Assembly (NCBI GenBank): GCA_963666205.1
Contig: OY762654.1
Location: 768,001 to 832,000, forward strand
From: Synergistales bacterium
Lineage (GTDB): Bacteria; Synergistota; Synergistia; Synergistales; JAFGMB01
DNA length: 64,000 nucleotides
Direction: 5' to 3'
Within the stretch, counting starts at the first letter, position 1. Each line of letters starts with the position of its first letter. The notes under the pieces are model-generated. The model was not told where the DNA came from, ran no database searches, and saw nothing but the letters and a program-made list of their open reading frames with translations. Of this stretch, positions 7,067-35,857 are shown piece by piece. Made by a program: the position numbers and the translations under genes.

Positions 7067-7477
7067 ATGGGGAAAATGCGTAAAATCATAATTCTATCAA
7101 TTCTTGGAATAGCAATAATAGCAACGTTTATGCTCAAAAACAGCAACGAGGTGGAACAAATGGTAGTGGTCAATGGCAAACTTCCGATCCTCCTTGATAT
7201 GTCAACCGCAACCTGACCTGCCTGTAAGGAAATGAAAGGAATTCTGGAAGAATTCCAGGAAAGATACACGGGAAGTGTGGAAATCAATATTATAGACCTC
7301 TGGAAACAACCTGAAGAGGCAGAAAAATACTCTATACGAGTTGTTCCTACTTTGATATTTCTGGATCCGGAGCAGAATGAACTTTACAGACATGAAGGTG
7401 TAATGACCGAAGAAATGCTTCTGAAGAAATGGAAGGAGCTGGGATTTGAACTTAAAAACGAAGGGAAACAGCCCTAA
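7067..7477 (+). CDS. Membrane-anchored thioredoxin-family selenoprotein (UxxC)
   Basis: AGGAGG RBS, ATG 7067, hydrophobic N-terminal anchor. In-frame TGA at 7214-7216 gives ...LLDMSTAT-U-PAC-KEM; the frame continues to VVPTLIF (cis-Pro motif). Stop overlaps the ccdA start. Confidence 0.85.
7238..7256 (+). promoter_or_regulatory. Putative bacterial SECIS hairpin of the thioredoxin
   Basis: GGAATTCT-GGA-AGAATTCC perfect stem with a G-starting loop about 30 nt after the TGA. Confidence 0.6.
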
Positions 7478-8178
7478 TGATAGAGCTCGTAAGTAAAGTA
7501 TATACGACATTACAGGGGGCTGATTTTTTAGCCCTCCTTGCAGCCTATATCTGGGGGATTTTCGGTATGCTGCTTAGCCCCTGCAGCCTTGTGACAATAC
7601 CCCTTGTGGTGGGATACATAGAATCCCAGGAAACCAGAGGCATGAAAAATGCTTTCGTTATATCCTCATGGTTCTCCCTGGGTATTTTTGTAAATGTAGC
7701 CCTTGTAGGCATAGTTATAGCTTCCGCAGGAAGCCTTTTATCAGAGGTTGGCAGATACTCCAATTATTTTGTAGCGACTGTCTTTTTCCTCTTCGGTCTT
7801 CACCTTCTCGAAGTGATAGATATGCCCTGGTTCAAACAGGTCGGGATGAAGGAATACAAACATAAAGGCCCTCTTGGGGCTCTTCTGCTTGGGGCTCTTT
7901 CCGGGATGGCCATTGGTCCATGCGCATTTGCATACCTGGCACCCATGCTGGTGATAGCGATGAAAGCCGCTACGATCAATCCCTATTTTGGTCTATTGCT
8001 GGTTTTGATGTATGCTCTTGGAAACTGCACCGTTCTGGTTACAGCCGGAACTTCTGTCGGTTTTGTATCAGGATTCATGGAGCTTGATGAAAAATCCAGG
8101 TTTACCCTCGTAATGAATTACGTTTTTGGAGTGATCCTTCTTGTCACTGGTTTACTCCTTATCTACAAAGCCCCATGA
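7477..8178 (+). CDS. ccdA: CcdA / DsbD transmembrane electron transporter
   Basis: About six TM helices with two PC motifs (LLSPCSL, IGPCAF). Confidence 0.85.
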   Translation: MIELVSKVYTTLQGADFLALLAAYIWGIFGMLLSPCSLVTIPLVVGYIESQETRGMKNAFVISSWFSLGIFVNVALVGIVIASAGSLLSEVGRYSNYFVATVFFLFGLHLLEVIDMPWFKQVGMKEYKHKGPLGALLLGALSGMAIGPCAFAYLAPMLVIAMKAATINPYFGLLLVLMYALGNCTVLVTAGTSVGFVSGFMELDEKSRFTLVMNYVFGVILLVTGLLLIYKAP

Positions 8179-32747: not shown

Positions 32748-34403
32748 TTATTGTTCCCTCGTTCCTGAAGCCAAAGGAAGAGAAATGGAGACTCTAGCTC
32801 CCCCATTTCTGTTACGTCCAATACTCAAAAAACCTCCCAGGGTTCGGGCCTGTTCTCTTAGACTGAAGAGGCCGAAACTGTGATTTTTCTCTGAATATTC
32901 ATGATCAGATAATCTGCGGATCCCCTTTCCATTATCCGTGACAGATATACGCAGATCACCTTTGGTAAAAGACGCGGAAACATCAGCTACTGTAGCATCT
33001 GCATGTTTGATAACGTTTGTCAGCAATTCACGAACTGCCCTGAAAAGAAAGGATTTTATATCATCAGACATTTCTGAAGGGATATTCTTAAATTGACAGG
33101 AAATCTTGATGTCAGACTGTCTCCCCAGTTTTTCGACCAGCCATTCTACTGCAGGAGAGAAGCCCAGTTCATAGAGAACAGGAGGGCTCAATTCAAAGGT
33201 AATGTTCCTGACACAGGATATGGCATTTTCAAGATTACGGCAAGCTTCATCCAGATGGGAACATGTTTCGGGATCACTGAGACCCTTCCGGGCCATTTCT
33301 AGTCTTAATTTCGAGAGAAGGAGATCCTGACCTATATTGTCATGGAGCTGATGGGCTAATGATCTTTTGGTCTTTTCCTCCAGATAAGTCATTCTATATG
33401 ACAGCCCCTGGAGCTGGCGCTGATATTTGTGGAATTTTACCTCCTGTTCCTTTCTTTCTGAAATATCTCGAGATATAAAGAGCATCAATAGCTCACCTCT
33501 AAGATGGAAAACATGAGCACTGATCTCCACATTAATACTTGACCCATCTTTTCTCACGTGGACTGCCTCAAAAATCATCCTTCTCTTTTTTCTGAGCATT
33601 CTCATGATCTTTTCCATATTTGCAGAACCGGCTATTCCATCAATATCCTGCAACTCCATAGATAAAAGTTCTTTTCTGGAATAACCCAGGGAACGGCATG
33701 CAGAGTCGTTAACTTCCACAAAACGACCGGGGAGACCATCATCACGAATTTTCAGCAGGAATATCTTGTCCGTAGCATTCTGGAAAAGATAACGGTACTT
33801 ATTCTCACTTTCCTTTAACTCTCTCTGGATGAGTTTCAGGGAAGAGATATCCCTCGCAATTGTTGCTGTAGCAATAACCTGACCCTCCGGGTCAAACATG
33901 GGAAACTTGCGACTCAGATAAAATTTTTCCACTCCGTCGGGATAAACAATATTTCGTTCTCTTTCAATAAAATTCCCCTTCGGGAGGGTCTGGGCAAGAG
34001 TTTCATCCAATGAATATTGCCTTATAGTCTCCATATCAAGATGGGGGCAATAGATCTCTTCATGCGTTTTTCCGACGACATCTGTAATATCATGTTTCCA
34101 GACAGCCTTTACAAAAGCCCTGTTAGCTGTTATCAGCTTAAGGTCAAGATCAAACATTGTTACTATATCTTCTGTTTCTTCGACTATGGTAGAAAGATAA
34201 CTTCTATCAAGGAGCTCATCATAAAACCGAAGTATCTGACCCCGAAAAGAGAAGGAATTATCATAAGAGACAGTACTGGAAAGAGGAAGAAGCAATTCAA
34301 TAACCTCTCCTCGAAAATCGGAGGTATCCTTCAAATTGAAGAGGTTATCAAAATAAGTGAGAAAATTGGACGATCCCTTCTCTGACCCCATTTCATCTAC
34401 CAT
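32748..34403 (-). CDS. Cytoplasmic two-PAS sensor histidine kinase (HisKA_3 type)
   Basis: Two PAS/PAC domains, LHDNIGQ H-box, ELLTNVIKHA, DNGKG; no TM segment seen. Confidence 0.92.
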   Translation of the reverse strand: MVDEMGSEKGSSNFLTYFDNLFNLKDTSDFRGEVIELLLPLSSTVSYDNSFSFRGQILRFYDELLDRSYLSTIVEETEDIVTMFDLDLKLITANRAFVKAVWKHDITDVVGKTHEEIYCPHLDMETIRQYSLDETLAQTLPKGNFIERERNIVYPDGVEKFYLSRKFPMFDPEGQVIATATIARDISSLKLIQRELKESENKYRYLFQNATDKIFLLKIRDDGLPGRFVEVNDSACRSLGYSRKELLSMELQDIDGIAGSANMEKIMRMLRKKRRMIFEAVHVRKDGSSINVEISAHVFHLRGELLMLFISRDISERKEQEVKFHKYQRQLQGLSYRMTYLEEKTKRSLAHQLHDNIGQDLLLSKLRLEMARKGLSDPETCSHLDEACRNLENAISCVRNITFELSPPVLYELGFSPAVEWLVEKLGRQSDIKISCQFKNIPSEMSDDIKSFLFRAVRELLTNVIKHADATVADVSASFTKGDLRISVTDNGKGIRRLSDHEYSEKNHSFGLFSLREQARTLGGFLSIGRNRNGGARVSISLPLASGTREQ

Positions 34404-34428
34404 TGGATACCTCCCTTGCTCCTTAGGC

Positions 34429-34480
34429 AACCTCAAAATGAAAAGACAAGGTTAAAACCTTGTCTTTTCATTTTGAGGTT
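34429..34480. terminator. 52-bp inverted repeat directly after the msrA stop
   Basis: aacctcaaaatgaaaagacaaggtt-aa-aaccttgtcttttcattttgaggtt: 25-nt perfect arms. Confidence 0.65.
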
Positions 34481-34481
34481 T

Positions 34482-35252
34482 CTATTCAGAAGCAGATACC
34501 ATCTTTCTGAGTTTATCCTGAGCCGCTGGAGATAGACCCAGGAGGTCTATCTCAGTTTCAAGCTGTAAAAGGTCACCCATCCCTGAAACATATCCATTCA
34601 GTCTTGCTGCAGCCGTTGAATCAGTAAGTTCTCTATCACTTAAGAAAATTTTTGAATAGTCATCCATAAATTCCCTGAACCTCTTCAAGCGGTATTTCTG
34701 GTGATATTCTTCAGCCAGATAAAATTCACGGAAAGGGATCACTTCTGTTAAAATGACTATTCCACGTTTTTTCTCTTCTTCTGATATACTTTCGATGATC
34801 TTTTGTTTCTGAGATTCATTATGATAGAAAAGAATAGAAATATACTGACGGGATGAAGTCTTTTGTGCAGGATCATGACTTGACCAGAAAACTTCAAGTA
34901 ATTCAGAAAAGGAAATCTTTTCGGGGTCGAAATCTATCTGAATACTTTCAGTATGGTCACCCAGATCATGGTAGGTGGGATCCTTTAAAGTACCTCCAGA
35001 ATAACCCACCCGTGTACGTATAACTCCTGGAATTATCCCGAACCGGGAATCAGGTCCCCAGAATCAACCTAAGGCAAATGTTGCAGTTTCAACCTTTAAT
35101 GGCAGTTCCCCATCTATAAGGGGTTTCTTTGCAAGAACACTCTCATCAGTTCTCATAGCTGTTGCCTCCCTTGAGCAGATAAACAAGAATGAAAATATCA
35201 GAAGGAAGAAGATAACTTTCCATGCTTTCACAGGCATGGAATAAGGATACAT
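34482..35252 (-). CDS. msrA: Exported selenocysteine-containing methionine-S-sulfoxide reductase
   Basis: ORFs 35064-35252 and 34482-35009 are one frame: ...ETATFALG-TGA-FWGPDSRFG...TRVGYSGG...AEEYHQKY. TGA (35066-35064) replaces the Cys of GCFWG. AAGGAGG RBS and N-terminal signal-like segment. Confidence 0.9.
35025..35063 (-). promoter_or_regulatory. Putative bacterial SECIS element of msrA
   Basis: Directly after UGA: lower stem UUCUGGGG/UUCCAGGA and upper stem UCCCG-GUU-CGGGA with a G-starting loop. Confidence 0.7.
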
Positions 35253-35467
35253 GATTATTCCTCCTTACACAGGGCCTGAATAGTGTTATCAGGCTATATT
35301 TTTATCCTGCTAGCTAATGATACAGGCACAGACATTTTACCCCATAAGTTCCACCATCCACAAGCAGTATGTAAATAAGTAAACTTAACCCCTAAAGACG
35401 ACAGTTTTAAATTATAATCATGTATGTTCAAACAAATTATTTTTCAGATAAAACCGGAGGATATGAT

Positions 35468-35857
35468 ATGCCGATCGATGAATCTTCTATTCGAGGACAA
35501 ATATTGAAATTAAAGGATTTTCGAAGATGGTCGAACAAGAATGAACTGACTTTTTTGCCCCAGCTTATGGTTGAGGAGGAAATCATAAAGGGCCTGACCT
35601 CCGTCCTGTACAATGAAAGAAAGTGGCTTATGGTCTTAACTGATAGAAAGGTTATATTTCTTTACAGAAAGATGATCGATGGTATTCAGGAAAGCATTCC
35701 CCTGTCTGACATAGTTTCTGTTTCCTGTGAAACCGGCCTGATGTTTGCACGGTTGATTTTACAGACAGATAAAAAAGAAATGAACCTGGACTCTATCCTT
35801 AAAAAGGATGCCCTTGTAATCAAAGAACTCCTTTCAGATATGCTTATAGAAAAATGA
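35468..35857 (+). CDS. Bacterial PH-domain protein
   Basis: GGAGG RBS; LMVLTDRKVIF...IPLSDIVSV...GLMFARL pattern. Confidence 0.7.
   Translation: MPIDESSIRGQILKLKDFRRWSNKNELTFLPQLMVEEEIIKGLTSVLYNERKWLMVLTDRKVIFLYRKMIDGIQESIPLSDIVSVSCETGLMFARLILQTDKKEMNLDSILKKDALVIKELLSDMLIEK

Follow-up and report, generated by a model that had tools for sequence, protein, structure and literature searches.

A selenoprotein MsrA gene of a Synergistales bacterium with an export-type leader and a possible second start

The window analysed here, a stretch of 64,000 nucleotides from a Synergistales bacterium (assembly GCA_963666205.1, contig OY762654.1, positions 768,001 to 832,000), contains on its minus strand a gene, msrA, in which an in-frame TGA stands for the catalytic cysteine (Cys) of the enzyme MsrA, a peptide methionine (S)-S-oxide reductase that acts in the repair of oxidised methionine. 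The gene encodes a selenoprotein MsrA with no resolving Cys, it opens with a hydrophobic leader, and two of its in-frame ATG codons, one at the head of the leader and one just past it, are each preceded by a strong Shine-Dalgarno (SD) sequence. The explanation that we favour as a whole, with a confidence somewhat above even, is that msrA would supply an exported selenocysteine (Sec) enzyme as well as a cytoplasmic form begun at codon 33, and that both would be served by external reductants.

The gene, its selenocysteine codon and its enzyme family

34482..35252, minus strand: msrA full frame, 256 codons plus a TAG stop, with TGA codon 63 read as Sec
35064..35066, minus strand: UGA Sec codon U63, standing for the catalytic Cys of GCFWG (here GUFWG, residues 62-66)
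35024..35063, minus strand: stem-loop of the selenocysteine insertion sequence (SECIS) type, upper hairpin 35033..35051, lower helix weakly supported
34677..35087, minus strand: MsrA catalytic domain (residues 56-192), Pfam PMSR
34530..34643, minus strand: C-terminal helical domain typical of selenoprotein MsrA (residues 204-241), PF20939

Under translation table 11, the gene falls into two open reading frames on the minus strand, 35064..35252 (62 aa) and 34482..35009 (175 aa), that share one frame. Translated from 35252 to 34482 with TGA read as U, they give 256 residues in which U63 is the sole recoded codon, within the motif ALGUFWGP; this agrees with the original prediction, made from the sequence alone, that the two frames are one protein of 256 aa joined by TGA at codon 63. 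The same prediction had the TGA replacing the catalytic Cys of GCFWG, and homologues confirm the placement: in 75 parsed loci the column holds TGA in 60 and TGY in 15 (a ratio that is no population estimate, since the search pattern for the public loci permitted TGN at this codon). These loci come from a collection of 94, in which the window's own genome and its relatives account for 14 and named public genomes for the other 80; a motif regular expression parsed 75, and the remaining 19 were dropped. When the protein was searched against 40 relatives, 20 gave a match and 12 had exactly one in-frame TGA at the same motif, with the frame preserved on both sides. Five of 20 fetched database proteins show W at the Sec column, which we read as TGA translated under another code, and Cys forms also occur among the database proteins.

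The genome, a single contig that is 100% complete, carries everything needed for reading the codon: selA (564.7 bits) adjoins selB (364 bits), selD (333.7 bits, C1:2905894-2906826) contains a single in-frame TGA of its own, and there is a tRNA-SeC (anticodon tca). The original prediction had named absence of selABCD as a ground for doubt, and a check of the genome finds selA, selB, selD and tRNA-Sec all there. SelB and tRNA-Sec would read UGA-63 as selenocysteine, aided by a hairpin about 13-30 nt downstream.

It is highly improbable that msrA is not a selenoprotein gene at all, the TGA either terminating translation (leaving a pseudogene or two products) or reflecting an assembly error. Such a reading could appeal to the modest local hairpin and to the gene callers, which split msrA and leave a fragment of 175 aa (P0002) as its only database entry. 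That fragment, however, would be without the catalytic residue, the Sec machinery is complete, and in 60 loci the TGA falls exactly at the catalytic Cys column with the frame kept on both sides. The codon is also bridged, with no difference listed at 35064-35066, by contigs of three RNA libraries (X8, X10 and X11) and one DNA run (X4), all from other samples. Because the TGA is kept in 12 of the 40 relatives and recurs in these independent runs, a sequencing error at the codon, which the original prediction had raised against itself, is excluded as an explanation, and a pseudogene is likewise very unlikely. A further point, that RNA-level constraint is confined to the TGA forms, is taken up below. 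Judged from the sequence comparisons, msrA is an intact selenoprotein gene and no product of chance or error. The practical consequence is that gene callers truncate it, leaving the 175-aa fragment in the database; in the same genome they also truncate a thioredoxin-like (Trx-like) gene, selD and a glutaredoxin gene.

The RNA downstream of the UGA has been under constraint of a specific kind. The upper hairpin, UCCCG-GUU-CGGGA, consists of 5 bp closed by the loop GUU and lies 15 nt past the UGA (+16..+34). In the 60 TGA forms, 80% of the upper helix is paired, with both-sided (compensatory) changes at four of its eight pairs. All six core pairs are retained in 39 of the 60 TGA forms versus one of the 15 Cys forms; codon +7, which encodes the loop-forming Arg, is CGG in 44 of 60 versus four of 15; and 43 of 60 versus two of 15 contain the string GGTTC. 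By minimum free energy (MFE) of the 57 nt after the codon, TGA and Cys forms are indistinguishable (medians -20.8 and -22.2, p 0.41), and the pair count of the specific helix was used in place of plain MFE for this comparison. Since core pairs, CGG and GGTTC are kept in the TGA forms and not in the Cys forms, the upper hairpin, to judge by covariation and codon choice, is behaving as a SECIS element, with RNA-level constraint in the TGA forms only.

Other features of the fold count against this assignment. The 86-nt stretch that was folded does no better than its shuffles (z -0.54), and msrA's own hairpin is short, with 5 bp and five of the six core pairs. The lower helix (columns 4-11 with 36-43 after the T of TGA) could form seven of eight pairs here; over the 60 TGA forms it is 71% paired, its central pairs failing in about half of the sequences. 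The two-part stem-loop of the original prediction therefore stands in part: both helices can form, but the lower one is poorly kept, and a two-part lower stem is not well supported by these comparisons. Rfam at gathering thresholds returned nothing in the window.

The assignment to the MsrA family is clear. PF01625 (PMSR) matches at 8.5e-41 (140.2 bits versus a cut-off of 23.7), TIGR00401 exceeds its cut-off of 108.1 with 123.7 bits, and PF20939, named 'Selenoprotein MsrA helical domain', matches at 4.2e-8 (33.3 bits versus 23.7). The best matches in the PDB are 4u66, 7c13 and 4lwj-4lwm, with E about 1e-56 (1.5e-56 for 4u66 and 4lwj); the entries are titled only 'MsrA', and we take them to be the enzyme of Clostridium oremlandii (CoMsrA). 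The alignment runs without gaps from residues 53-249 here to 6-202 of the chain, and the active-site residues Tyr47, Glu55, Gln89, Tyr90 and His137 of CoMsrA fall, again without gaps, on Y94, E102, Q136, Y137 and H184, all of them invariant or nearly so in an alignment of 12 sequences. The single Cys of the protein, C26, terminates the hydrophobic stretch VIFFLLIFSFLFI (residues 13-25), so the earlier remark that the only Cys lies inside a signal-like N-terminus holds. C26 falls within the leader and the mature MsrA has no resolving Cys; half of the TGA-form homologues (30 of 60) are likewise without another Cys in the domain. By these sequence criteria the msrA product is a 1-Cys selenoprotein MsrA (one that lacks a resolving Cys), of the type found in Clostridium oremlandii. 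A Sec-MsrA without resolving Cys, as described in clostridia, is what had been predicted, and the domains, the PDB matches and the description of CoMsrA (PMC4333827) bear this out.

Two side observations concern the same protein. Residues 52-131 match weakly (E 4e-8, far under the cut-off) to model positions 143-208 of NCBIfam NF041383, 'VPGUxxT family thioredoxin-like (seleno)protein, type 2', which appears to include an MsrA-like stretch. In the linker ahead of the catalytic domain (residues 43-54, window 35090-35125, minus strand) there is a P-x-I-D motif whose P44 and D47 are invariant in 12 sequences; the motif is absent from CoMsrA and from the leaderless forms of one family of relatives, f6.

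The leader and the two start signals

35157..35252, minus strand: N-terminal signal peptide or signal anchor, codons 1-32, read by eye, with an n-region holding K9 and K12, an h-region (13-25), C26 and A-T-A (30-32) ahead of M33
35260..35266, minus strand: SD sequence of the first start, AAGGAGG, with a 7-nt spacer to the ATG at 35252..35250; duplex with the 16S tail -12.1 kcal/mol
35154..35171, minus strand: internal SD sequence AGGGAGG (35171..35165), 8-nt spacer and ATG codon 33 (35156..35154); duplex -11.3 kcal/mol

The N-terminus runs, in order, MYPYSMPVKAWK, VIFFLLIFSFLFI, CSREATA and MRTDES, so that two Lys precede the hydrophobic core, a net negative flank follows it and A-x-A stands before Met33. 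A hydrophobic leader is found in eight of the 12 relatives with a TGA gene (the four leaderless ones all belong to family f6) and in 53 of the 75 parsed loci, 45 of them TGA and eight Cys forms, spread over several phyla and with little sequence identity. In 20 of these 53 the leader ends in a lipobox-like motif. One more locus (L108), outside the 53 as it lies slightly below the hydrophobicity cut-off, has by eye a twin-arginine motif, RRSFLK, followed by a lipobox-like LAGC. The genome encodes an Omp85 protein, signal peptidase I and Lgt. Translation from the first start (ATG1) would yield a 256-residue precursor, and the leader would carry the catalytic domain across the inner membrane of an outer-membrane-bearing host, where it would be cleaved after A-T-A or kept as an anchor. 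The envelope form would then repair Met-S-sulfoxide in envelope proteins.

How the leader is processed is less clear, and here several points tell against a simple picture of export. PF01252 (signal peptidase II) has no match in the 100% complete genome and the context of Cys26, F-I-C, makes a poor lipobox, which together leave the mature form uncertain; cleavage, anchoring and sidedness are all matters of a reading by eye. From that reading we favour a periplasm-facing enzyme, its leader either cut off after A-T-A or retained as an anchor. The original prediction called the enzyme secreted and considered this less usual. The leader (K9, K12, core, A-T-A) agrees with the first part; the supposed rarity does not hold up, as a leader in 53 of 75 loci implies that export would be the common state of the MsrA family and no oddity. 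An exported form would accordingly seem to be common in this family and yet scarcely described. If it is real, Sec enzymes would routinely enter the envelope of anaerobes via the Sec export route or the lipoprotein route.

An alternative is that the true start is ATG codon 33, with the upstream 32 codons translated negligibly or not at all, so that the enzyme would be cytoplasmic only. The strong internal SD sequence is consistent with this, as are the four leaderless relatives of family f6 and CoMsrA, which is leaderless and whose residue 6 aligns with residue 53 here. We consider it quite improbable nonetheless, given that these 32 codons form an open stretch in frame with the rest, with AAGGAGG ahead of them, and that a leader recurs in 53 of 75 loci despite low identity; lipobox-like and twin-arginine motifs would make no sense if they were untranslated. 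RNA-library contigs also reach upstream of ATG1. The contig X8 spans 34300..35318, with 20 differences in 1019 nt, X11 spans 34957..35284 and terminates in adapter sequence, and X10 spans 34875..35245; the DNA contig X4 continues to 35500, past the ends of X8 and X11. The extension of X8 and X11 upstream of ATG1 is a weak hint that the mRNAs include ATG1 and its SD site, with the counterpoint that contigs of RNA libraries neither prove transcription nor map a 5' end. A scan for consensus sigma-70 sites found no minus-strand promoter upstream of msrA.

The preferred reading adds a second product to the exported one. Codons 28-29 (AGG GAG) form the internal AGGGAGG, and a start at codon 33, just past the leader, would give a leaderless cytoplasmic form of 224 residues, so that a single msrA would serve both compartments, as pilB does in Neisseria. 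Comparable sites recur among the homologues: in 33 of the 53 leader-bearing loci, the stretch that separates the hydrophobic core from the catalytic domain contains an in-frame ATG or GTG whose duplex is at least as strong as -7, mostly 26-34 codons before the Sec/Cys codon. A strong SD sequence precedes 26 of 54 ATGs in the linker, whereas past the Sec/Cys codon 10 of 153 in-frame ATGs have one (Fisher 1e-10, a value overstated because the loci are kin). Natural homologues without a leader have their starts at the matching position (L071 and L092 at -33, L095 at -31, L085 at -28), which implies that a protein started there is viable. The genome has msrA as its sole match to PF01625, and one match is listed for each of the 12 relatives with a TGA gene.

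Could the long precursor instead be the only product? The SD-like site at codon 33 would then be a by-product of the encoded Arg-Glu ... Met residues, and no cytoplasmic MsrA would exist. We regard this as possible but would put it at well under even. The SD sequence of ATG1 is the stronger and better spaced of the two, and 20 of the 53 leader-bearing homologues are without a strong internal start. The genome's only msrB (G000:C1:904717-905061, minus strand; L118 1489-2064), outside the window, also encodes an N-terminal hydrophobic leader, beginning MTRKYKPTVFFAIFLQIFLSASFF; it really starts at ATG codon 19 (SD -10.1), with an internal ATG that is weak (-5.3), and a strict anaerobe could conceivably confine its Msr system to the envelope. 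On the other side stands the frequency of strong SD sequences at linker ATGs compared with those downstream, together with the leaderless homologues that start at the same position. Codon choice, beyond the residues themselves, also appears to make the site. With synonymous recoding by each gene's own codon usage the mean duplex is -5.8 versus -7.9 observed, the observed being stronger, although the comparison is biased upward for the observed values because the best site per locus was taken; for the internal site of msrA only 3% of recodings reach the observed duplex (3rd percentile). The linker sequence is otherwise poorly conserved.

That recoding bias and the 20 loci without a strong internal start weigh against a dual product, as do two further considerations. 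If a second start made up for the lack of a separate cytoplasmic enzyme, it should go with a sole msrA; of the genomes whose exported gene has a strong internal start, 16 of 26 have no other msrA, compared with eight of 20 where such a start is lacking, which is a trend only, not significant, in a set of incomplete metagenome-assembled genomes. The support for the second start also consists of sequence statistics on related, non-independent loci. On balance these statistics suggest, at roughly even or slightly better odds, that both starts are used and that an exported and a leaderless cytoplasmic isoform are made. A cytoplasmic product initiated downstream of the leader was something that the original prediction saw as contrary to itself. 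The codon-33 SD sequence, close in strength to that of ATG1, lends the idea some substance, but production of both forms appears likelier than replacement of one by the other. Dual targeting by alternative initiation in bacteria could be tested on this conserved second start.

One observation on the RNA around the first start may be added. In the MFE fold of window 35195-35270 (minus strand), the first SD sequence, AAGGAGGAA, pairs with UUCUUCCUU of codons 15-18, and likewise at the locus of a relative from the same genus (L016); an 8-bp hairpin (35241..35218) also lies directly after ATG1. Either the pairing or the hairpin, if formed as predicted, could damp initiation at ATG1 relative to ATG33.

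Candidate reductants and gene neighbourhood

7067..7477, plus strand: membrane-anchored Trx-like selenoprotein, 136 aa, TGA at 7214..7216, motif U50-P-A-C53 (TUPAC), Pfam Thioredoxin 8.9e-13
7477..8178, plus strand: CcdA (DsbD_TM) transmembrane electron carrier, the genome's sole match, overlapping the stop of the Trx-like gene

The selenenic acid on Sec63 is not resolvable within the protein, and an external partner is needed for this reason. For an enzyme in the envelope with a single Sec, this raises the question of what the reductant would be, if the exported form is real. The window holds one candidate in a Trx-like gene that is split by an in-frame TGA and encodes an N-terminal anchor. 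TGA or Cys stands at the same column in 11 relatives (Sec in eight and Cys in four of 12 aligned sequences), and the pairing of this gene with ccdA is preserved in those relatives (L120-L130). No match to PF01578 (cytochrome c assembly) was found in the genome, so the usual client of CcdA is missing. By analogy with known pathways, the anchored UPAC Trx-like protein with CcdA is a candidate extracytoplasmic reductant of MsrA: outside, the selenenic acid on Sec63 would be reduced by the Trx-like protein fed by CcdA, and inside by a UPWC glutaredoxin-like one. The latter is encoded by a small selenoprotein gene with an in-frame TGA (G000:C1:2711604-2711783, plus strand; L143), which has a near-identical Cys paralogue with CPWC (L142), and it may be regarded as a candidate reductant for the cytoplasmic isoform.

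The genomic evidence does not all favour this partnership. The Trx-like/CcdA pair lies 27 kb from msrA, and tblastn over the flanks of the 94 msrA loci gave no CcdA or Trx-like match. Two genomes (G010 and G019) have the pair and no MsrA match, and two others (G012 and G037) have MsrA without a Trx-like match at 1e-5. The earlier claim that the enzyme needs an external reductant is reasonable, and the window offers a candidate, though one with no direct link to MsrA. Bolder still is the proposal that the two isoforms have separate selenoproteins to recycle them, the UPAC Trx-like protein with CcdA outside and the UPWC glutaredoxin for the codon-33 form, which would amount to 'tandem selenocysteine' repair outside the cytoplasm; we think this rather doubtful. 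Were it true, dual targeting by alternative initiation would be a family-wide trait of exported MsrA in anaerobes.

The gene that does occur beside msrA elsewhere is msrB, which adjoins it in 19 of the 94 loci, directly upstream of the Sec/Cys-MsrA. The MsrB of this genome has Thr, in SGTGWPSF, at the GCGWP-type position, which presumably often or usually holds the resolving Cys in MsrB. As a side observation, the frame upstream of msrA at four loci (L039, L064, L089 and L094) is open for more than 200 codons, with MsrB-like sequence running into MsrA, and these may be MsrB-MsrA fusions.

In the window itself, the neighbours of msrA are genes for a PAS histidine kinase, for a regulator of the LuxR type and for a bPH protein, besides glycogen genes, with no redox partner among them. 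The kinase and the regulator, both downstream, are kept only within the genus (the kinase in L015 and L016). Between msrA and the kinase gene lies one further element:

34431..34478, no strand assigned: 20-bp palindromic hairpin just past the msrA stop and before the downstream histidine kinase gene, crossed by the X8 RNA contig

On the other side of msrA and divergent from it, a gene for a bacterial PH-domain protein (bPH_3, 35420-35857, plus strand) is kept beside msrA across one family of relatives, f1 (L015-L018 and L020).

Comparison with known systems

To our knowledge, selenoprotein MsrA is known from one cytoplasmic clostridial enzyme. Literature searches, in which subscription journals are mostly uncovered, turned up no title or abstract opening on an exported Sec-MsrA or on a Sec-Trx/CcdA pair. 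Term searches of two 2026 reviews gave the same picture: the terms 'signal peptide', 'periplasm' and 'secreted' are absent from that on selenoproteomes (PMC13188914), and no word beginning 'seleno' occurs in that on sulfoxide reductases (PMC13488963). The selenoprotein MsrA family itself is known.

The closest known enzyme is CoMsrA of Clostridium (Alkaliphilus) oremlandii OhILAs (PDB 4LWJ, 4U66 and 7C13; PMC4333827, PMC4479559), which shares with MsrA here the GUFWG motif, the lack of a resolving Cys, the PF20939 domain and the active-site residues. It is a protein of 209 aa from a Gram-positive host, of the '1-Cys type' in that Sec is its only Cys-type residue; it is 20-fold more active than its Cys version, requires its C-terminal helical domain, and is recycled by glutaredoxin and not by thioredoxin (PMC4333827). 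Recycling by a separate small redox protein would be a further likeness, and the UPWC/CPWC pair in this genome echoes the Sec-glutaredoxin of C. oremlandii cited in the same paper. Unlike the leaderless CoMsrA, MsrA here has a 52-residue extension made up of the leader, the second start and the P-x-I-D linker, and its host has Omp85.

For dual targeting, the nearest parallel is PilB of Neisseria, a Trx-MsrA-MsrB protein that works with DsbD and occurs as a periplasmic form and, via an internal AUG, as a cytoplasmic form (PMC6210582). The likeness would be twofold. First, a signal sequence would direct one product of the gene to the envelope, and an internal AUG would provide a second, cytoplasmic one. 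Second, recycling in the envelope would depend on a Trx-fold module that is fed by a membrane carrier of the DsbD/CcdA type. The differences are also clear: PilB is a Cys enzyme with a resolving Cys, fused to MsrB and to its own Trx domain, and its internal start drops a whole domain, whereas MsrA here is standalone and uses Sec, its candidate Trx partner is a separate selenoprotein 27 kb off, and its two forms would differ by the leader only.

In S. gordonii, S. pneumoniae and H. influenzae, exported Msr enzymes depend for their recycling on chains of a Trx-like protein and CcdA (PMC7034828, PMC13488963). In the MsrAB-Etrx/SdbB-CcdA pathways of Streptococcus pneumoniae and S. gordonii and the MsrAB/CcdA pathway of Haemophilus influenzae, an exported or anchored Msr goes together with an anchored Trx-like protein reduced by CcdA, and the arrangement proposed here would resemble them in this respect. 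The streptococcal and Haemophilus pathways, however, consist of Cys proteins encoded in the same or adjacent operons, whereas here both the Msr and its candidate Trx carry Sec and their genes are not adjacent.

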